Source: Promethearchaeota archaeon
GTDB lineage: Archaea; Asgardarchaeota; Lokiarchaeia; Sigyniarchaeales; SOKP01
Direction: 5' to 3'
Assembly (NCBI GenBank): GCA_030603385.1
Contig: JAUVXW010000005.1
Coordinates: 64,001-128,000, forward strand
DNA length: 64,000 bases
Shown here: positions 6,237 through 48,290 of the stretch, one piece after another
Position numbering within the stretch: the stretch's first letter is position 1
Layout: each line of letters starts with the position of its first letter
The notes under the pieces: model-generated
Told to the model about the DNA's origin: nothing
Seen by the model: the letters and a program-made list of their open reading frames with translations, nothing else
Databases searched by the model: none
Position numbers and translations under genes: made by a program

Positions 6237-7178
6237 ATGAAAATTTCAAATTTTAATACTAATTCTCCACTTATTCATACTTATTCTATCGTGGCAAGAG
6301 ATCCAAAAACAGGACAAATGGGTGTAGGAGTACAGAGTCATTATTTCTCAGTAGGTTCCGTTGTAGATTGGGGGCGTTCTGGAGTTGGTGTAGTAGCCAC
6401 ACAATCGTTTGTAAACAAATCTTTTGGATTAAGAGGTCTTGATCTAATGGAACAAGGAAAATCACCAGAAGAAGCATTAAAGATATTACTTTCAGATGAC
6501 GAAGGAAAAGATGTAAGACAAGTTGCTTTATTAGATAATCAAGGTAAGACCGCTGTTCATACGGGATCAAAGTGTATTAAATATGCTGGGCATGAAAAAG
6601 GAGAGAATTTTTCAGTTCAAGCAAATATGATGTTAACGGATAAAGTTTGGCCAGCTATGGCTAAGGCTTTTAAAAAAAATAAAAACTTACCTCTACCTGA
6701 GAGAATAGTAAAGACATTGGAGGCAGCAGAAGCAGAAGGAGGAGATATAAGAGGAAAGCAATCAGCAGCCATATTAATTGTAAAAGGTGAGCAAGTCGAA
6801 AACAAATGGGACGATCCTTTTATTGACATTAGGGTTGAAGATCATCCTGAACCTTTAAAAGAACTTAATAGACTATTGAAACTCTGGAGAGCTTATGAAA
6901 ATATGGATAAAGGAGATATTGCTATGGAAAAAGGCGATACAAATAAAGCCCTAGAAGAGTATAACAATGCAAGAGAAATGTTCCCTGACAATCTTGAAAT
7001 GAAATATTGGACAGCCATATCTCTAGCTAATAAAAATCAAATTGAGGCGGCATTACCACTATTAAAAGAAATTTTTGAAAAGGATAATAATTGGCGAATA
7101 CTTACGGAAAGGCTCCCCGAAGTGGAAATATTAAATATATCAGAAAATGATTTGAATAAAATATTAAATTTAACGTGA
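6237..7178 (+). CDS. DUF1028 (Ntn-hydrolase-like) protein with C-terminal TPR-like region
   Basis: TYSIVARD...GVGVQS, VATQS, QANMM, GGDIRGKQSAA, DIRVEDH; helical TPR-like tail. Confidence 0.85.
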   Translation: MKISNFNTNSPLIHTYSIVARDPKTGQMGVGVQSHYFSVGSVVDWGRSGVGVVATQSFVNKSFGLRGLDLMEQGKSPEEALKILLSDDEGKDVRQVALLDNQGKTAVHTGSKCIKYAGHEKGENFSVQANMMLTDKVWPAMAKAFKKNKNLPLPERIVKTLEAAEAEGGDIRGKQSAAILIVKGEQVENKWDDPFIDIRVEDHPEPLKELNRLLKLWRAYENMDKGDIAMEKGDTNKALEEYNNAREMFPDNLEMKYWTAISLANKNQIEAALPLLKEIFEKDNNWRILTERLPEVEILNISENDLNKILNLT

Positions 7179-8233
7179 AAAGTATGAAAGTTGCACGATA
7201 TTATAATAATAATGATATAAGAGAAGACGAAATCCCTAAACCTGTAATTGGTCCAGGAGAAATTTTAGTAAAAGTAAAAAAATCTGGGATTTGTGGTTCA
7301 GATATACTAGAATATTATCGATTTGCTAAAATGAAGAAATTAGGTGTCGATTCTCTAATTTTAGGTCACGAAATAGCAGGCGACATTGTTGAGAAAAGTG
7401 AAACAGTCAAACATTTGAAAGTTGGGGATCGTGTATTTGTTTCTCATCATGTGCCTTGTTTTGAATGTCATTATTGTAAACAAGGGCATCAAACTGCTTG
7501 TAACTTACTCCATAATACTAATTATGATCCTGGTGGCTTTGCTGAATTTGTACGTATACCTAAGATCAATATTGAAAAAAAAGGTGTATATGTTTTAGAT
7601 AGAAGCGTATCTTATGAAGAGGCTGTCTTTATAGAACCACTTGGTTGTGTATGTCGAGCACAACGATTGGCGAATGTGAAGAAAGGATTAACTGTTTTAA
7701 TTTTAGGATGTGGCACATCAGGATTATTACATATACAATTGGCGAAAGTTAGGGGCGTAAAAAATATTATTGCCACCGATATAAATGAGTTTAGACTTCA
7801 GAAAGCAAAAGAATTCGGGGCTGATACTGTATTTCATGCTAATGTAGATCTTACAAGAGAAATTCAAGAAATAAACAAGTTTAGATTAGCCGATATTGTA
7901 ATTGTATGCACTGGGGCTACATCAGCTGCACAACAAGCCTTGGAATGTGCAGCATCAGGGAGCAAGATTATTTTCTTTGCAGTTCCAGAGCCAGGTATTA
8001 ACCTTGAAGTCCCTATTAATAAATATTGGAGAAATGAAATAACAATTATGACATCTTATGGGGCAGCTCCGCAAAATCTTGATGAGGCATATAATTGGAT
8101 TCTCTCAAAAAGAATTAACGTTGTAGATTTAATCACCCATAGATTTCCACTTTCTAAAGCTAAGGAAGCATTTAAAGTTGTATGCGAAGCAAAAGAATCT
8201 ATAAAAGTAATTTTAAAAACAGAAGGGGATTAA
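7175..8233 (+). CDS. Zn-dependent medium-chain alcohol/polyol dehydrogenase
   Basis: GICGSD, GHE, CFECHYC...C structural Zn site, GCGTSG. Confidence 0.9.
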   Translation: MKSMKVARYYNNNDIREDEIPKPVIGPGEILVKVKKSGICGSDILEYYRFAKMKKLGVDSLILGHEIAGDIVEKSETVKHLKVGDRVFVSHHVPCFECHYCKQGHQTACNLLHNTNYDPGGFAEFVRIPKINIEKKGVYVLDRSVSYEEAVFIEPLGCVCRAQRLANVKKGLTVLILGCGTSGLLHIQLAKVRGVKNIIATDINEFRLQKAKEFGADTVFHANVDLTREIQEINKFRLADIVIVCTGATSAAQQALECAASGSKIIFFAVPEPGINLEVPINKYWRNEITIMTSYGAAPQNLDEAYNWILSKRINVVDLITHRFPLSKAKEAFKVVCEAKESIKVILKTEGD

Positions 8234-39840: not shown

Positions 39841-40179
39841 ATGAATTCATTCAAAAAACGAGACTACTATGAGGTACTGGGTATAGGTCGAAATGCCACT
39901 AAAATCCAGATCAAATTAGCATATCGACGACTGGCAAAAAAGTATCATCCTGATAAGAATAAAAAAGATCTAAAAGCAAAAGAAAAATTTATTGAGATTC
40001 ATGAAGCATATGAAATTTTAAATGATCCAGAACGAAGAGCACATTATGATCATTTAGGTTTCAGCAAGATATTTTTTGATAAAGAATCTAAATCAACTCA
40101 TTCAAATACAGATTTTAAAGATTATGATTTTGGGAGCAATTTTGTAAATTATATTTCTAAATATTTTAAAGGAAAATAA
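39841..40179 (+). CDS. J-domain protein (short DnaJ-like)
   Basis: [29 protein letters not shown]; lacks the Zn-finger and substrate-binding domains. Confidence 0.9.
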
Positions 40180-40257: not shown

Positions 40258-40734
40258 TTAATTTTCATCGAATTTATCAATGTCAAGACCTTGTTTCTTT
40301 AATACTTGAAGTACAGACTCAATTACCTTTCTTATATCCTCCTCTTTAATTTCGCTTAATTTAGGGAGATTTTTAAAAGTATTGAGATCATTTAAATTCA
40401 TACGTTGCTTAGGGATGATATCTTGGACTGAAATAATCAAATCTGGTACAATACTAAGATGTTTATATATTGTACTTGCACAGGCTGTATTACATCCGAT
40501 AATAATAAGAATAAAGGAATGTTTGAGATGATTTTTAGTAATTTCAACTAATTGTTGTTTTTCTAATAATACATTTTTAAGAAAAATAGTGGAGCATGTC
40601 ATTGAGCTAATAGAAGCTATTTTACTTTTCTCTGCCAATCGTATTGCGACCTGTCGTGCTAATTCACCATGATATTCTGAACCTGAACATGTTATTAAGA
40701 CAATGTTTTCTACCTGGATTTCCTTTTTACTCAA
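40258..40734 (-). CDS. DGC-domain-like putative Zn-binding protein
   Basis: ITCSG...GELARQVA...MTC...IIGCNTACA. Confidence 0.75.
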   Translation of the reverse strand: MSKKEIQVENIVLITCSGSEYHGELARQVAIRLAEKSKIASISSMTCSTIFLKNVLLEKQQLVEITKNHLKHSFILIIIGCNTACASTIYKHLSIVPDLIISVQDIIPKQRMNLNDLNTFKNLPKLSEIKEEDIRKVIESVLQVLKKQGLDIDKFDEN

Positions 40735-40735
40735 A

Positions 40736-41029
40736 TTAAATCAAACCTTTTGCCTTCAATATTTCTGGTAGCTTTTTCTTCAGAGCAAATGAAGTCGTAA
40801 CGATTTCATTTCCATCAATAACTATACTATTACCATGCAAATTCAATCTTCTTGCTTCTTCAGAATCTAAATTTTTTGTATCGAATGATATATACTTATT
40901 ATAGGGTGTAATTACCTGAAAAACGAGATTCATAAATCTTTCCCATTGGCAAGCGCATACATTTAAAGGTACATAAATTTCTACTTTAAGTTTATTTTCC
41001 TTTTGAACTTCACTTTCTTGTTGACTCAT
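40736..41029 (-). CDS. Small thioredoxin-fold-like protein (CxC)
   Basis: KVEIYVP..VCAC...SIVIDG. Confidence 0.55.
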   Translation of the reverse strand: MSQQESEVQKENKLKVEIYVPLNVCACQWERFMNLVFQVITPYNKYISFDTKNLDSEEARRLNLHGNSIVIDGNEIVTTSFALKKKLPEILKAKGLI

Positions 41030-41044
41030 TTTAACACCTTCATT

Positions 41045-41365
41045 TTATATTTTTTGCTGGAGTTCTACAATTTTTTTAAATTTTTCATTTCTTTTAATTA
41101 AATTATCTACTATTGCCAATAACTTGAAAATTTGGGTATCTTTTACTTTAAACAATTTTTTATTTCCTTCCCTTCTACTTTCAAGGATATCCGCTTCAGT
41201 AAGAGTTTTTAAATGTCTAGATAATGTAGATTGAGTTTTATCAAACACTTTTTCAATGTCGCAAACACAAATCTCATTTCCATGCCTTAGAAACTCTAAA
41301 AGTTTTAATCTAGTTTCATCGGAGAGAGCTCTTAATAAATCCAATCTTAAATTTTCAAGTTTCAT
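41045..41365 (-). CDS. arsR: ArsR/SmtB regulator
   Basis: RALSDETRL, EICVCDI, QSTLSRHL. Confidence 0.9.
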   Translation of the reverse strand: MKLENLRLDLLRALSDETRLKLLEFLRHGNEICVCDIEKVFDKTQSTLSRHLKTLTEADILESRREGNKKLFKVKDTQIFKLLAIVDNLIKRNEKFKKIVELQQKI

Positions 41366-41499
41366 ATTTTTTTATGCATTTATGCGTATTAATACATATA
41401 CTTATAAACGAATTTTCTATTTAAATCTTGTGTTAATAGTAATTAAACTAAATTAAAATTGAGATAATAAGTTCAAGATTAATAGATGGTGCTAATAAA

Positions 41500-41886
41500 T
41501 TGAACAATACAAAAAAAGAAATTGGATTCATTATGTGTGTTTGTACTGGAAAATGCCCTGGATTTGCTAAAATGGATATATGGGATTTTATTAATCGTAT
41601 AAGAATTGAACTTCCTGTAGAATATGGATTTATTCATCCTCAATTGTGTGAAGAAGATGGCGATAGATTTTTAGATGATTATTTAAGTTCTGGTCGAAAA
41701 TATATGGTGGCAGGATGTGCTCCAAACATGCAATATAAGTTATTTAGAGACGCTTTTAAGAAAGCAGGATTAGATATAAAAACAGATTTAATTCCCTTGG
41801 ATATTCGCGAAATGACTACAGATGAAGCTGTTAATTTAGTTGAAAAGAGCCTGGAGAAATTAGAGGAGGATATTAAAAATGAGTAA
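41500..41886 (+). CDS. Stand-alone HdrA N-terminal-domain-like Fe-S protein
   Basis: IGFIMCVC...QLC...VAGCAP...FRD...AGLD...DIRE aligns with HdrA N-terminus IAVFICQU...SLU...VSCTP...NIRE. Confidence 0.7.
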   Translation: MNNTKKEIGFIMCVCTGKCPGFAKMDIWDFINRIRIELPVEYGFIHPQLCEEDGDRFLDDYLSSGRKYMVAGCAPNMQYKLFRDAFKKAGLDIKTDLIPLDIREMTTDEAVNLVEKSLEKLEEDIKNE

Positions 41887-42181
41887 GAGTTATGATGCTG
41901 AAAAAGAAACGTTTATGGGAGTTCCAAGAAAAAAGATTCCCTGGTGGCCTATAATAGATTATGATAAATGCAACTTTTGCATGGAATGTGATAAATTTTG
42001 CCCACATAATGTATATGCAAAGAATAATGATGAAAAACAACAGCTAATAGTTAAAAATCCATACAATTGTGTAGTATTTTGTCGTGCGTGCGCTAAGACT
42101 TGCGCTCCTGATGCTTTATCATTCCCAGATAAGCGGGAAACGACTAATCTAATAAAGAAGCTTAGAAGTGAAAATAAGTAG
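41879..42181 (+). CDS. 2x[4Fe-4S] ferredoxin
   Basis: CNFCMECDKFCP and CVVFCRACAKTCA. Confidence 0.9.
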   Translation: MSKSYDAEKETFMGVPRKKIPWWPIIDYDKCNFCMECDKFCPHNVYAKNNDEKQQLIVKNPYNCVVFCRACAKTCAPDALSFPDKRETTNLIKKLRSENK

Positions 42182-42193
42182 ATGTGATGCATA

Positions 42194-43078
42194 ATGGATA
42201 AACAGTTATGTGTTTTACCTTGCAACGGTCTAGATAAATCACTAGGGGTAATTGCGAGAGCAGTAGCACTTAATCTAATTGAAAAAAAACTTGATTTTAA
42301 TTTAATTTGTCCAGTTTTGCTGAATACGGGCGATGAGAAATATGAATCTAATTTAAGAGAATCTAGAACTATTGTAATCGATGGTTGTATGACTAGATGT
42401 GCTACAAAACTAATCGAAGAACGAAATCAAAAAATTTACAAACGAATATTTATCCCCGATATGTCAAAAAAATTAAAAATAAAACCTGGGACGAGTTTAA
42501 AATTGAGTGAAAATGCCAAGAAATTAGCTGAAATGATTGCTAAGGGGTTTTTAGAAGAACTAAAAGTAAGCGAAAAAGAAGATATAGTTATCGTAGCTAA
42601 GACAGAAAGGATGGATTTTTTTGATATTACTGTGGACAAATTCTATTTTCAAGTTCCTAAAGAGGGATATTTCTTCAATGAAAACGATTGTTGGATCAAA
42701 CCAGATAGTAATAGAGCTCTAATTGGTATTACAGATTATCTGCAGAATCAGTCAAGTGATATAATGTTTGTAGAATTACCCGAAATTGGTCAAGAAATTG
42801 AACAATTCGATGATGTTGGTTCTTTTGAATCTGTTAAAACAGTATTGCAATTAATATCTCCTGGTTCAGGAAAAATTGTTGCTGTCAATAAAGCGTTAGA
42901 AGAACATCCTGAATGGATGAATCAGGATTGTTATCAGCAAGGATGGTTTGCAGAATTAGAGTTAAAAGATTTTGAGGAGGATAAAGAATTACTTATGGAT
43001 GGTCCAGAATATTTTGAATATATGAAAGAAAAAATATTAAACGAAAAGGAATTATTAGATAAAGAAAAAGAGGATTAA
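42194..43078 (+). CDS. DGC-domain / glycine cleavage H (lipoyl carrier) fusion
   Basis: LPCNG...LIC...IDGCMTRCA (DGC); IGITDY, FVELPEIG, ESVKT lipoyl-Lys, SPGSGKI.AVN, GW (GcvH). Confidence 0.85.
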   Translation: MDKQLCVLPCNGLDKSLGVIARAVALNLIEKKLDFNLICPVLLNTGDEKYESNLRESRTIVIDGCMTRCATKLIEERNQKIYKRIFIPDMSKKLKIKPGTSLKLSENAKKLAEMIAKGFLEELKVSEKEDIVIVAKTERMDFFDITVDKFYFQVPKEGYFFNENDCWIKPDSNRALIGITDYLQNQSSDIMFVELPEIGQEIEQFDDVGSFESVKTVLQLISPGSGKIVAVNKALEEHPEWMNQDCYQQGWFAELELKDFEEDKELLMDGPEYFEYMKEKILNEKELLDKEKED

Positions 43079-43079
43079 G

Positions 43080-43502
43080 ATGAATGAAAAGAAAGTTTAT
43101 ATTGTTCCGTGTAGCGGAATTGGAAAAGTTTTTGGAAGCATTGGTAGAAAAACAGCATATATAGTCGTTAACGAATTAGCGAAGGATAAGACCACTTTAG
43201 AATGCTTACCTTTAATAGTAAATGGTAAAAAGGAAGTCATTGAGGCAATAAAGGAAAATAAAGTAATCGCCTTAGATGGCTGCCCCTTAAAATGTTCTTA
43301 TAATGATTTAATGGAAGCTGTTGGAAAAGTAGATGCTCAGTTTTTGACTACTGATATTGTAAAGGAAAATAAAGATTTAAAACCAGAACCTTCAATTATT
43401 CCAGTTGGAGAAAATACTAAGCAATTGTCGATAAAATTAGCAGAAAAGGTGGCTGCTGAAGTTGATAAATTATTAGAAGAAAACATGGAGAGGGACGATT
43501 AA
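43080..43502 (+). CDS. DGC-domain putative Zn-binding protein
   Basis: VPCSGIG...ECL...ALDGCPLKCS. Confidence 0.85.
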   Translation: MNEKKVYIVPCSGIGKVFGSIGRKTAYIVVNELAKDKTTLECLPLIVNGKKEVIEAIKENKVIALDGCPLKCSYNDLMEAVGKVDAQFLTTDIVKENKDLKPEPSIIPVGENTKQLSIKLAEKVAAEVDKLLEENMERDD

Positions 43503-43922
43503 ATGAAAAAAAAGGTTGGAATTATTGCTTGTAGTGGTGAAAAATTAGTTGGAGGCACTTTAAGTCGCGCAGCTGCGAGAATAGTTGTTGAAAAATTACG
43601 ACCAAATAATACGATTATTTTATGTCAACCCTTATTTATGGCAGGTGGGTTAGAAAGGCATGGTGGGCAACAGGAGAGGGACTTTGCAAAAAATCATCCA
43701 ACGATAACAATAGAAGGATGTGAAGAGGAATGTGCTAAAATTGCTGTTGATAAGTATAGTGGTAAGCCTGCAGCAACCATATATATTCAAGAGATTGCGG
43801 AAACATATCCTGAACTAAAGCCAAAATCCCGTGAAGATTTAGGAGAGGATGGTATGAAACTTGCTGAAATAATTGCTGAAGAAATAGCGAAAAAAGTGGA
43901 TGAATTATTTCAAAGTAAATAA
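43503..43922 (+). CDS. DGC-domain putative Zn-binding protein
   Basis: IACSG...ILCQ...IEGCEEECA. Confidence 0.8.
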   Translation: MKKKVGIIACSGEKLVGGTLSRAAARIVVEKLRPNNTIILCQPLFMAGGLERHGGQQERDFAKNHPTITIEGCEEECAKIAVDKYSGKPAATIYIQEIAETYPELKPKSREDLGEDGMKLAEIIAEEIAKKVDELFQSK

Positions 43923-43962
43923 TAATGAATTGATAAAAATTAAAATTTTTTAGAGTATTTAA

Positions 43963-44688
43963 ATGGAAAGGGATAAAAGTAAAATTAAGATTGGAATTGT
44001 ATCTGATGGAAAATATGGTGAAAGAGCTTTTGAAAACACTAAAAAGCATTTTGATGTAGAATGGATATTAGTCCCAGATATCCCTCCAACAGTTATGTTA
44101 GATGATGACCTTTACTTTGATATCCCGGAGTGCGAGCTTTATTTATCATATGTTCGGCATCCAGATATCATTTTGGAACTAGCTGGACTCCAAAAACCAT
44201 TAATCTTAGGCATAACACCTGGTCTTGGTTTATTAAAGCAAGCTAGAAATATTAATCCTAAAGTAGTTGGTCCTCGAACCATGTGTTCTTTAGAACCGTA
44301 TACAGGAATTCCAGAGATTGATACTTTCGCAAAATATTTTGGAAAACCTCTTTTTGAATTAAATTTAGACAAGGAGACGAAAATTTTAAATGTAACGGTT
44401 TTAAGATCATCCCCATGCGGCTCCTCAGCTGTGGGAGCAAATTTCATGTTAAATAAAAAGTTAAGTAAAAAAATTTTTCAGGATTATGCTTTAATAGTAT
44501 GTCATGAATGTAGAGCTCCTCGTTTTGGTCATACTTGCGATAAAGAAGTATCAGGAATCATTCACATTCTTTCCTTTATAAATTGTATTGATCCTGAAAA
44601 AAGATCCATGTTCAATAATGAGTTGCAAGAATTTATTAAAAATTTGAATCAAGAATACAAAAATAAAACTGAAATGAAAATATTGTGA
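43963..44688 (+). CDS. DUF166-like Cys-rich protein
   Basis: GKYGERA, HPDI, P.TMCSLE, FGKP, VLRSSPCGS, C.A. Confidence 0.7.
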   Translation: MERDKSKIKIGIVSDGKYGERAFENTKKHFDVEWILVPDIPPTVMLDDDLYFDIPECELYLSYVRHPDIILELAGLQKPLILGITPGLGLLKQARNINPKVVGPRTMCSLEPYTGIPEIDTFAKYFGKPLFELNLDKETKILNVTVLRSSPCGSSAVGANFMLNKKLSKKIFQDYALIVCHECRAPRFGHTCDKEVSGIIHILSFINCIDPEKRSMFNNELQEFIKNLNQEYKNKTEMKIL

Positions 44689-45926: not shown

Positions 45927-46223
45927 TTATATGTTGATAATACTATCATTTGCTAAAACGATATCAATGAGTTCTCCATAATCCTTCAATTCTACATTAT
46001 CGAAGACAACTTTATTTAATCCACGAATATTGACATCATCTTTACATGCAATTACTTTTATCCCTTGATTTAGCGCGTCTGATGTTTCTTTCACGGTTTT
46101 ATTAGCTAAATAAACTGCATTTTGTAGTAAACATATGGTTTTATCATCTTCTTTATTCTCTAAAACAAGCTCCAATCCTGTTTTATCTTGACTAGTTATA
46201 AAATAAACTATTTTTTTCCCCAT
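45927..46223 (-). CDS. DsrH/TusB-like sulfur-relay protein
   Basis: LLQNAVY, DDVNIRG, DYGELID; third gene of a DsrEFH-like triad. Confidence 0.8.
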   Translation of the reverse strand: MGKKIVYFITSQDKTGLELVLENKEDDKTICLLQNAVYLANKTVKETSDALNQGIKVIACKDDVNIRGLNKVVFDNVELKDYGELIDIVLANDSIINI

Positions 46224-46235
46224 TTTTTTTCCCTC

Positions 46236-46580
46236 TTAAAATGTAATTGCTAAATCACAATCTGCGAGTATTTTTAGAACCTCATCGTGTTCTTTTACAC
46301 TCACATCTTCAATCAAATCGTCTGTAGAGAGAGCTCGGTCATCAAGAGATTTTTTATCGATAATTATATCTAAGTCAATACTTTTTAGAAAATCCATATG
46401 TGGTTGATACATAGTTTTATCAACGTCTTTTATAAAAGCAAATACCGCATCATTAATTACTAACGTTATTGGCTCAAAATCACCACTAACAGCGACAGAC
46501 ATTCTTAACCCTTCAACAGGATATAAAGTTCCATGAGGTGGTTGCTTTAAAATTATAATTACATTTTTTTCTTCCGACAT
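46236..46580 (-). CDS. DsrF/TusC-like protein
   Basis: PPHGT..PVEGLR, DAVF, SL.DR.L. Confidence 0.8.
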   Translation of the reverse strand: MSEEKNVIIILKQPPHGTLYPVEGLRMSVAVSGDFEPITLVINDAVFAFIKDVDKTMYQPHMDFLKSIDLDIIIDKKSLDDRALSTDDLIEDVSVKEHDEVLKILADCDLAITF

Positions 46581-46594
46581 TTATTTTTCACCTT

Positions 46595-46966
46595 TTAAGA
46601 AACCACAATTAATTTATCAGTAAGCTCAATTATCTTAGCTAAGTCAGGGGTTCCCGCTCGTTTAATATCCGCATCACCACATTCTTTTCTATCTAAGCAA
46701 TTCTTCATGGTACCTCTTACAAGTAAGCATAAATTACACAACCTTACTACGGCGCCTTTATCGAGGATTTCTCTAAAGCCCTCTTCGATATTATAAATGC
46801 CTTCTATTTTTTTCTGATTACGCAAAACTGCATTCACCGCATCCATATAGCAAAAAATCCGAACATCATGACCTTTATCTAAAGCAGCATTAGCTAGTTT
46901 ACACACAGTTTCAGCTGCTTGAGTTTGATATGGCCCAGAAAAAAATAAGATACCTAATTTTGCCAT
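46595..46966 (-). CDS. DsrE/TusD-like sulfurtransferase
   Basis: SGPY, AALDKGH, FCYMDAV, LCNLCLLVRG. Confidence 0.85.
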   Translation of the reverse strand: MAKLGILFFSGPYQTQAAETVCKLANAALDKGHDVRIFCYMDAVNAVLRNQKKIEGIYNIEEGFREILDKGAVVRLCNLCLLVRGTMKNCLDRKECGDADIKRAGTPDLAKIIELTDKLIVVS

Positions 46967-46984
46967 CTGATTTCATCTCTTATA

Positions 46985-48043
46985 TTATTTCCGCATAAAA
47001 AGTAAATAAGCCATCAACCAACAACCTAGGATAATGAATGCACCAGATAATAGGCTTCCGAGAGAAAGCTGTGGAAAACCGCTTAAAATGTTACCTATAT
47101 TGCATCCCATAGCTATGATTGCTCCAATTCCCATCGCTAATCCACCAATAAATTGAATCAAGATAGTTTTTGCCTGTTTAGGGGTTCTCAACTTGAATTC
47201 TTTTGCAATAATCGCACTAATAAAAGCACCAATAACAATCCCTATTACTAACCATGTTTCCCAACCTAATGCTGAATTAACACCTGTATTCCAGAATTTA
47301 TTCCAGCCGACCCAACCACCTGTAATCCCTAAAGGATAATTTCGACCAGCTGCCGCTGAAGTCACATAAGCAAACAATGCTATTATTCCTATTGCAACTG
47401 CAGTTACAGCCCAATGCCATCCTTGTTTGAAAGTTTTTTGCCCAAAATTGGAAAAATCAAGCATGGGTTTATTTTCTCTTTTTTTTGCTCGTAATTCACG
47501 CCATATCCAAAAATAAGCAATTAAAGCAATTCCTGCTATACCAATGATTAACATAAATATTGGTGTGAGATCTCCAAAAAGTGTAAGTGCAGTGTTATCT
47601 GAGTAGGTAATTTTTGTACTATCTTGTAATTCTTTAGCTATGGGGTTAAGTGCTCCAACTTTCGTAAAATAAGCACCACCTGCAAACCCTAATAAAGCAA
47701 CTAGTGAACCCATCATACCTTCTCCTACTCGATATGTAGTTCCACTTGCGCATCCAGCGGCTAAGACCATTCCGACTCCGAAAATTAACCCTCCGATAAT
47801 GTTAGCACCCCATGCAAAATGCTTAGGATTTAAGGTAATTATGTCCGCAAATGACATTATTGCAAAACCTAACATTGACACAAGTATTGCTAGTGCTACT
47901 GATTTTGCTAATTTGTACTCTTTTAATAATATAATATCTCTAAAAGCAGAATTCATGCAAAACCTTCCTCGCTGTAATACAAATCCAAAAATAATTCCTA
48001 AAATTAATCCAGGAATTAACGCATACTCTATATCTATTGCCAT
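46985..48043 (-). CDS. YeeE/YedE family thiosulfate/sulfur(selenium) transporter
   Basis: LQRGRFCM, GMVLAAGCASG, AMGCNIG: three conserved Cys loops. Confidence 0.92.
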   Translation of the reverse strand: MAIDIEYALIPGLILGIIFGFVLQRGRFCMNSAFRDIILLKEYKLAKSVALAILVSMLGFAIMSFADIITLNPKHFAWGANIIGGLIFGVGMVLAAGCASGTTYRVGEGMMGSLVALLGFAGGAYFTKVGALNPIAKELQDSTKITYSDNTALTLFGDLTPIFMLIIGIAGIALIAYFWIWRELRAKKRENKPMLDFSNFGQKTFKQGWHWAVTAVAIGIIALFAYVTSAAAGRNYPLGITGGWVGWNKFWNTGVNSALGWETWLVIGIVIGAFISAIIAKEFKLRTPKQAKTILIQFIGGLAMGIGAIIAMGCNIGNILSGFPQLSLGSLLSGAFIILGCWLMAYLLFMRK

Positions 48044-48056
48044 TTTTTCTTTTCAC

Positions 48057-48290
48057 CTATTTTATTTTAACTAATATTTTCCATTCAGAAGCTCCAACTT
48101 TGTCAGTTGAAAGAACTTCATTTCCCATTGATTTCATTGTTTCAGGAATTCTTTCTGCTGAAAGAGGATAATCTATCAAGATTTCTAGAACTTCTCCTGA
48201 ATTCATTTTTTTAGCTTTCCTCTTACTTTTGACATCAGGGTAGGGACAAACCTCCCCTCTACAATCTAATGTTTCTGTAACATCAACCAT
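48057..48290 (-). CDS. tusA: TusA/SirA/YeeD sulfur carrier
   Basis: LDCRGEVCPYP, GEVLEILID. Confidence 0.9.
   Translation of the reverse strand: MVDVTETLDCRGEVCPYPDVKSKRKAKKMNSGEVLEILIDYPLSAERIPETMKSMGNEVLSTDKVGASEWKILVKIK

Follow-up and report, generated by a model that had tools for sequence, protein, structure and literature searches.

Introduction

Textbook ArsC chemistry relies on NADPH-thioredoxin or glutathione systems, which are often missing from strict anaerobes, and little is known of the ways in which these organisms reduce and handle arsenic. Lipoic acid, a cofactor carried on lipoyl domains, is the classic target of arsenite. Among the described systems that come closest to the locus reported here, arsenic raises the expression of the operon arsR5-arsP-arsE(PF13192)-DGC(PF08859) in Pseudodesulfovibrio mercurii ND132 (bioRxiv 10.1101/2022.10.17.512643), and one study describes GcvH-like LbpA proteins as functioning in sulfur oxidation (PMC11094781). 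We analyzed a stretch of 64,000 nucleotides (hereafter the window; contig JAUVXW010000005.1, positions 64,001 to 128,000, assembly GCA_030603385.1) from Promethearchaeota archaeon, a Loki-type Asgard archaeon with ~30% G+C and a 3.9-Mb, 94%-complete assembly. At window positions 40258-44688, two divergent operons encode an ArsR repressor, a small CxC protein, a stand-alone homologue of the HdrA N-terminal domain (HdrAN), a ferredoxin, four proteins with DGC domains, one of which is fused to a GcvH-type lipoyl carrier, and a DUF166 protein.

A first-pass annotation, made from the sequence alone, had proposed that these genes form an undescribed thiol or metalloid redox module. We favor the reading that the cassette is an accessory, transferable metalloid-defense module under ArsR control, with arsenic or antimony as the most likely targets, and that it works as a ferredoxin-powered dithiol relay; we give this reading a probability of roughly 0.55.

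Results

Gene content and conservation of the cassette

The gene set is real and tightly packed. The list of open reading frames, together with the Pfam and NCBIfam profile searches that assigned the nine proteins to families, upheld the genes, positions, and domains as they had first been read. The minus-strand operon consists of arsR, the gene for the 97-aa CxC protein, and DGC1, and the plus-strand operon holds six genes in the order HdrAN, ferredoxin, DGC-GcvH, DGC3, DGC4, and DUF166, with intergenic gaps in the cassette of only 1, 15, -8, 12, 1, 0, and 40 nt. Genome-wide, all four DGC genes lie inside the cassette. Full-text literature searches returned no description of this cassette, in agreement with its having been called undescribed.

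A survey of gene neighborhoods with one genome per species returned 78 loci, and the synteny script placed HdrAN in 38 of these. Wherever the contig allows, the core order HdrAN-Fd-DGC/GcvH-DGC3-DGC4 (Fd, ferredoxin) is kept in these 38 loci, which come from Loki, Heimdall, Jord, and Frey archaea, from Bathyarchaeia (where GcvH is a separate gene), from Eubacterium callanderi and E. limosum (with two copies), and from a Bacillota metagenome-assembled genome (MAG). We also drew an independent bacterial sample of 401 genomes from the phylum of E. callanderi, among which 22 carried HdrAN and 20 regions were fetched; 9 of these 20 loci contain the full cassette. The survey, which the first-pass annotation had suggested, thus found the genes co-conserved elsewhere, and the notion of one multi-protein unit of Fe-S and dithiol proteins held across distant lineages. 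It did not hold for all nine genes. DGC1 and the CxC gene occur together in 18 loci and DUF166 follows DGC4 in 15, and because these three are almost confined to Loki-type loci, we regard them as lineage-specific accessories outside the core.

Between Loki archaea and Eubacterium, HdrAN (65% identity) and the ferredoxin (60%) are the best conserved proteins of the cassette and DGC3 and DGC4 (33-45%) the least, and HdrAN identity across domains amounts to 65-90%. That Asgard archaea and Firmicutes have nearly identical versions of these two proteins suggests that genes passed from one domain to the other. The distribution is patchy: The cassette is present in 52 of 301 Asgard genomes and in only 2 of 23 genomes of its own genus. 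The J-domain and ABC-permease genes that flank it are also missing from the cassette-free genomes of the same genus, so that a clean insertion site could not be drawn. Patchy presence combined with variable flanking genes fits an accessory island. One contig labeled Nanopelagicaceae (L008, DATKTW010000027.1) has a gene order close to that of the window with 67-97% identity, including a leucine-rich repeat gene, and looks, from its sequence, like an Asgard contig that was binned into a bacterial MAG; two contigs labeled Deferrimicrobium and Isosphaeraceae (L023, L044) are less clear in this respect.

Linkage of the cassette to ars genes

An ArsR gene accompanies the cassette within 8 kb in 32 of the 38 loci; Acr3 does so in 13, and at least one ars structural gene in 14. 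The Bacillota MAG (L036) has, on a single strand, the order arsR-acr3-DGC-DGC-DGC-DGC-HdrAN-Fd-DGC/GcvH-ArsP_1-ArsC-type LMWPc. In one of the E. callanderi copies (L039), the order is ArsR, DUF2703, cassette, ArsD, ArsA, and ArsR, and a further locus (L050) carries acr3-GcvH-DGC-DGC on one strand. Each of the nine full cassettes in the bacterial sample has an ArsR-family gene within ~7 kb. The metalloid link that had been proposed is therefore real, as L036, E. callanderi, and the 13 loci with Acr3 attest, although it is displayed mainly in genomes other than that of the window, where the cassette operator is not common to acr3.

The bacterial sample also revealed a reduced form. Ten of the 20 fetched loci (L109-L118; e.g., L113:8049-10977, which we checked gene by gene) contain only arsR-ferredoxin-HdrAN. 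The HdrAN of this two-gene form is more distant, at 40% identity, with all five cysteines kept, and neither a DGC nor a GcvH gene was detected within 10 kb of it. An ArsC-type gene and Acr3 do lie within 10 kb in 8 of the 10 loci, where the unit is convergent with or beside arsR-arsC(LMWPc)-acr3; locus L118 gave a weak acr3 match only and no arsC match. Since HdrAN and its ferredoxin remain linked to ars genes where DGC and GcvH are absent, we take this pair, rather than the DGC set, as the engine of the system. In 4 of the 10 loci (L111, L113, L116, and L117), a C_GCAxxG_C_C "putative redox-active protein" (PF09719) is encoded within ~3.5 kb of the two-gene unit.

These neighborhoods also bear on an alternative that we consider unlikely, namely that the cassette serves in general thiol-redox, Fe-S, or lipoyl repair under a thiol-sensing ArsR-family regulator and comes to lie near ars genes only because both share variable stress islands. 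Such a module would sit well with the many loci that have ArsR and no ars structural gene within 8 kb, with the NifS-like desulfurase and Fe-S domain protein that flank the cassette in L039, with the OsmC and DsbD_2 genes that flank it in L036, and with an operator that in the window genome is private to the cassette (see below). It would not, however, account for the insertion of the L036 cassette inside an ars operon on one strand, nor for the fact that no fewer than 8 of the 10 two-gene loci have arsC and acr3 alongside, which is far above chance for genomes with one or two pumps each; and the patchy distribution fits a resistance trait. We also considered the cassette as a replacement for ArsC and rejected this idea, since the genome, in which no Grx-type ArsC was found, holds two LMWPc genes, and the L036 operon itself includes an ArsC-type gene.

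HdrAN and its ferredoxin

HdrAN (128 aa; 41500-41886, plus strand) matched no family in the Pfam search, and the NCBIfam HdrA model gave a faint match that covered only model positions 1-101 of 771. A profile built from 15 HdrAN sequences, in contrast to these single-sequence searches, matches the N-terminal domain of four HdrA structures over residues ~3-93, with E values of 4e-4 (7bkb), 5e-4 (9sfi), 0.02 (5odc), and 0.5 (8rvu). Cysteines C13, C15, C50, and C73 align with cysteines of HdrA, as the four ligands of an Fe-S N-terminal domain would, and C19 is an additional, fifth invariant cysteine (CVCTGKC). From Loki archaea to Eubacterium, 42 of ~124 columns are invariant among the 15 sequences. 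The 128-residue chain does not hold the FAD (flavin adenine dinucleotide)-binding, thioredoxin-reductase-like core and ferredoxin domains in one chain. Judged by these alignments, HdrAN is a homologue of one HdrA domain and not an HdrA. A search of longer proteins found no credible HdrAN fusion.

The gene for the 2x[4Fe-4S] ferredoxin (100 aa; 41879-42181, plus strand; Fer4_10 and Fer4) overlaps that of HdrAN by 8 nt, and a ferredoxin gene adjoins HdrAN in every locus, both in the synteny loci and in the bacterial sample.

DGC proteins and the lipoyl carrier

All four DGC domains scored above the Pfam cut-off of 27 bits: DGC1, a 158-aa protein encoded by the last gene of the arsR operon (40258-40734, minus strand), with 43.4 bits; the DGC domain of the DGC-GcvH fusion (42194-43078, plus strand) with 59.5; the DGC3-type protein (43080-43502, plus strand) with 56.4; and the DGC4-type protein (43503-43922, plus strand) with 46.9. 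Across 24 paralogues, C10, C41, C73, and C77 never vary, and in DGC3 the pattern PCSGxGK...R...C...GCxxxC is invariant. The family is small, with 841 representatives at E<=1e-3 among 1.84 billion. A good number of DGC4-type proteins have a total length of 230-255 aa and end in a C-terminal extension of ~100 aa without a Pfam match (L036:5357-6058 and 6557-7261, and other family members).

The lipoyl carrier of the fusion is recognized by GCV_H (PF01597) with 113.2 bits. All 18 homologues share the lipoyl lysine K215 and the cysteines C10, C65, and C69. At C41, 16 of them have cysteine and the other two serine. We regard this carrier as H-like rather than as a housekeeping GcvH, because its TIGR00527 score of 111.4 falls just below the equivalog cut-off of 115.85. 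A housekeeping glycine-cleavage GcvH is located elsewhere, on contig C4 beside GcvT, and the genome carries three GcvH-like genes and one GcvT in total. Homologues of the DGC-GcvH fusion fill ~1000 clusters, mostly from Asgard archaea. As for the machinery that would attach lipoate, the 94%-complete assembly yielded no match to Biotin_lipoyl and, for LipA, a weak radical-SAM match only. A ligase-family gene (~261 aa) is present in all 25 relatives searched, so the lack of a ligase match in the assembly (see Discussion) is probably an assembly gap.

No solved relative of DGC was found when the DGC profile was compared with the PDB sequences. The AlphaFold2 (AF2) model of DGC4, with a predicted local distance difference test (pLDDT) score of 93.5, adopts a flavodoxin-like alpha/beta fold in which the four invariant cysteines are placed after strands 1, 2, and 3 and at the start of the next helix. 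With VIA, the best matches to the DGC model reached Z scores of 8.9 (3pu6) and 8.8 (a transketolase C-domain). ArsC and low-molecular-weight protein tyrosine phosphatase chains reached only Z ~6.5 or E ~0.08, and we claim no kinship of DGC with them. In a profile-profile comparison, DGC and HdrAN aligned at their first cysteine and GC motif (P 0.0014, probability 17.6%), which is suggestive only of a relation between the two.

In structure prediction of complexes, again following a suggestion of the initial annotation, DGC3 and DGC4 gave an interaction prediction score from aligned errors (ipSAE) of 0.66, against 0.00 for the best control. For calibration, 58 of 80 solved complexes attain the 0.66 mark, as do 2 of 110 mismatched pairs. 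Contacts agreed to at least 86% between runs, and the pLDDT of the partner was at least 83. The predicted interface consists of the cysteine loops (DGC3 residues 10-15, 40-45, and 70-73 against DGC4 residues 9-15, 41-44, and 75-78), so that in the model the two four-cysteine sites face each other. DGC3 and DGC4 are thus predicted to pair via their cysteine loops. Natural tandem DGC-DGC fusions have a DGC3-type N-half and a DGC4-type C-half, as in the gene order of the cassette, and lend support to the predicted pairing.

The ArsR regulator and its candidate operator

The repressor of the cassette (41045-41365, minus strand) is named by NCBIfam as an ArsR/SmtB metalloregulator (HTH_5, 51 bits; NF033788, 81.8 bits, with the cut-off at 55), and its helix alpha-3 carries a CVC motif. 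This C33-x-C35 site is invariant in 16 of 16 aligned ArsR-family proteins, 14 of them encoded beside cassettes and two being the acr3-side ArsR proteins of the window. By sequence, the protein combines the winged-helix HTH_5 domain and the CxC site that characterize the As(III) sensors of the family.

At 41373-41399, between the two operons, lies a 27-bp imperfect palindrome, a candidate ArsR operator, which footprinting found kept in 17 arsR/HdrAN intergenic regions of Loki type (13 distinct). It is followed by two conserved A/T boxes, TTATAAAC and TATTTAAAT (41402-41426), which from their conservation in the aligned intergenic regions may be the TATA boxes of the two operons. We built a position weight matrix from the 13 distinct sites and scanned the window and the genome with it. 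The site at 41373-41399 scored 36.5 bits (23.6 on its own reverse strand), no other site in the window reached 8 bits, and elsewhere in the genome the highest score was 17.6 bits. As the candidate operator is unique in the genome, we take the cassette ArsR to be a local regulator. Longer intergenic regions seem, when read by eye and unscored, to hold a second, looser copy of the operator near arsR. In Heimdall- and Bathy-type loci (L025, L030, L032-L035, and L047), the ArsR-HdrAN intergenic region has, instead of the Loki-type operator, another conserved palindrome of the form ATAACAATATTTAAATATTGTTAT, and there regulator and site seem to have been exchanged together.

A regulator of this family leaves room for a defense against another soft metal such as Hg, Cd, Zn, or Cu, in which the DGC proteins would be metal-binding buffers, in line with the Pfam guess of zinc binding, and ArsR the metal sensor. 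The four invariant cysteines of the DGC domain would suit such a role, CxC sites of ArsR/SmtB proteins serve several metals, as is established for the family, and the best NCBIfam matches of the ferredoxin, below cut-off, are HgcB-like. The recurrent neighbors, however, are Acr3, ArsP_1, the ArsC-type LMWPc, ArsD, and ArsA instead of mer, czc, or cop genes, and a redox engine with three Fe-S clusters would be unneeded for buffering, and we consider this explanation improbable.

Accessory proteins and flanking genes

The 97-aa CxC protein (40736-41029, minus strand) has no sequence match in Pfam or the PDB. Its AF2 model (pLDDT 83) has a thioredoxin/glutaredoxin fold, to which Foldseek returned 14 thioredoxin or glutaredoxin matches at E<=1e-3, and its invariant C25-x-C27 occupies the position of the thioredoxin CxxC, with CxC as the motif instead. 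The nearest named protein Atlas clusters carry Thioredoxin_3 (0.86-0.88), which serves as a lead only. A natural fusion of a DGC4-type protein with Thioredoxin_3 (P0190) parallels the adjacent CxC-protein and DGC1 genes of the window. We also compared the CxC protein with DUF2703 as a candidate relative and found no relation. DUF2703 genes (NCBIfam "DF family (seleno)protein," below cut-off) are found within a few kb of bacterial cassettes (L039:6683-7228, L102, L103, L104, and L108).

The DUF166 gene (43963-44688, plus strand; 100.9 bits) ends the operon. The sole functional datum on this family is that a Methanococcus homologue is required for autotrophy dependent on carbon monoxide dehydrogenase/acetyl-CoA synthase (CODH/ACS), which does not explain its role in the cassette.

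Family searches recovered the flanking genes that had been read from the window: Acr3 and two further ArsR genes, 2.2-4.4 kb from the cassette, and a tusA-yeeE-dsrE-dsrF-dsrH cluster on its downstream side. The Acr3 assignment is barely above the TIGR00832 cut-off (285 bits against 282.8). Just upstream of the cassette, at 39841-40179 on the plus strand, lies a gene for a 112-aa J-domain protein (DnaJ, 92.8 bits) with little else in the chain; this gene accompanies the cassette in L005, L006, and G191, and cassette-free genomes of the same genus lack that copy.

The tusA-yeeE-dsrEFH cluster raises the question of a sulfur or persulfide relay akin to sHdr-LbpA, in which lipoyl carrier and Fe-S proteins would process protein-bound sulfane sulfur from TusA, DsrE, and YeeE. 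These sulfur genes lie near the cassette in the window and in three loci of close relatives (L009, L013, and L022), and in one bacterial locus YeeE and TusA lie ~4 kb from the two-gene module (L114:4963-5725; window counterpart 45927-48290), which hints weakly at a part for thio-arsenic or sulfur species. The GcvH-like LbpA proteins of sulfur oxidation, as described in the study cited above, provide a precedent for the carrier. Yet HdrB, HdrC (CCG domain), and a flavin-bearing HdrA are all absent among the nine proteins, and outside close relatives sulfur genes adjoin the cassette in that one bacterial locus, whereas ars genes recur beside it across domains. The parallel to sHdr-LbpA-TusA-DsrE that the first-pass annotation had drawn is correspondingly weak, even though it was right that HdrB and HdrC are missing, and we rate a sulfur relay as improbable.

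Discussion

How might a metalloid-defense module of this composition work? In the mechanism that we infer, in which the cofactors, the direction of electron flow, the lipoylation, and every step of arsenic chemistry are proposals, the CxC-type ArsR would repress the two divergent operons via one palindromic operator. The 2x[4Fe-4S] ferredoxin and HdrAN would form an engine which, by analogy with ferredoxin-thioredoxin reductase (FTR), uses low-potential electrons to reduce a disulfide. A first acceptor could be the lipoyl arm on the DGC-GcvH fusion, and a second the four-cysteine sites of DGC3 and DGC4, paired face to face. In Loki-type genomes, the thioredoxin-fold CxC protein with DGC1, and DUF166, may be extra acceptors. 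The reduced dithiols would then bind or reduce arsenicals, and As(III) would be passed to Acr3 or ArsP for efflux.

A more specific version of this mechanism appears possible, though we hold it to be clearly less probable than the defense role as such. It posits a new arsenic enzyme system. Electrons from reduced ferredoxin would pass through a stand-alone [4Fe-4S] module of HdrA type, whose fifth cysteine would be catalytic, and reduce a protein-bound lipoyl arm and a paired, eight-cysteine DGC site, which in turn would reduce or chelate arsenate, thio-arsenic, or organo-arsenic for export. If true, lipoate would for the first time be seen to act as a cofactor in detoxification, and the DGC domain as well as a free-standing HdrA N-terminal module would gain a first function. 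Lipoate, the classic victim of arsenite, may then serve the cassette as a tool against arsenic. For strict anaerobes, the cassette is a widespread and transferable candidate for arsenic reduction or handling, and E. callanderi and E. limosum are carriers that can be grown and engineered.

Several observations weigh against metalloid defense by such a relay. The 38-locus counts include related genomes and are not independent counts, 24 of these 38 loci have no ars structural gene within 8 kb (some being short contigs), and in the second E. callanderi copy (L041) ArsR alone adjoins the cassette. In the window and genome of this study, the matrix scan found no operator shared with the acr3 promoter and so gave no sign of joint regulation with the pump. 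The CxC sites of ArsR/SmtB proteins are able to sense other soft metals, and the tusA-yeeE-dsrEFH genes, which speak for a sulfur role, begin 1.2 kb downstream of the cassette in the window. On the chemical side, the lipoate-ligase family BPL_LplA_LipB (PF03099) has no match in the 94%-complete assembly, the DGC cysteines may hold Zn, Fe-S, As, or nothing, as fold searches with the DGC model gave generic flavodoxin-like matches only (Foldseek best E 0.02), and in L036 an ArsC-type gene co-occurs with the cassette.

Compared with known systems, HdrAN resembles the N-terminal [4Fe-4S] domain of the HdrA of methanogen heterodisulfide reductase, to which ~90 residues could be matched with the CxC, C, and C positions aligned. 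Unlike HdrA, it stands alone, has the fifth invariant cysteine C19 along with numerous invariant polar residues peculiar to it, and lacks a flavoprotein context. FTR and the HdrB-type [4Fe-4S] disulfide reductases offer a working analogy only: As in those systems, a ferredoxin is combined with a small CxC protein that has a cysteine beyond the four cluster ligands, and thiol or disulfide proteins are the likely acceptors. This analogy comes from motifs and gene context; FTR and HdrB have no sequence relationship to the cassette. With sHdr-LbpA, the cassette shares a GcvH-like carrier outside glycine cleavage that is encoded together with a piece of Hdr and, in the window, the neighbors TusA, DsrE, and YeeE. 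It differs in having only the ~125-aa Fe-S N-domain of HdrA and no FAD domain, in lacking HdrB, HdrC, and lipoate-assembly genes in the cluster, and in that its regulator and recurrent neighbors are ars genes and not sulfur-oxidation genes.

The known ars operons (ArsR-Acr3/ArsP-ArsC with thioredoxin, and ArsD-ArsA) are matched in two respects, namely the CxC-type ArsR and, in several lineages, a place in or beside such operons. In the window, by contrast, acr3 is a separate unit with ArsR genes of its own and no shared operator was found; and none of the described ars operons has a lipoyl carrier, a free HdrA N-domain, or a dedicated ferredoxin, all of which the cassette combines. The arsE-DGC pair of the ND132 operon, finally, is mirrored by the thioredoxin-fold protein and DGC pair on the arsR strand of the window.

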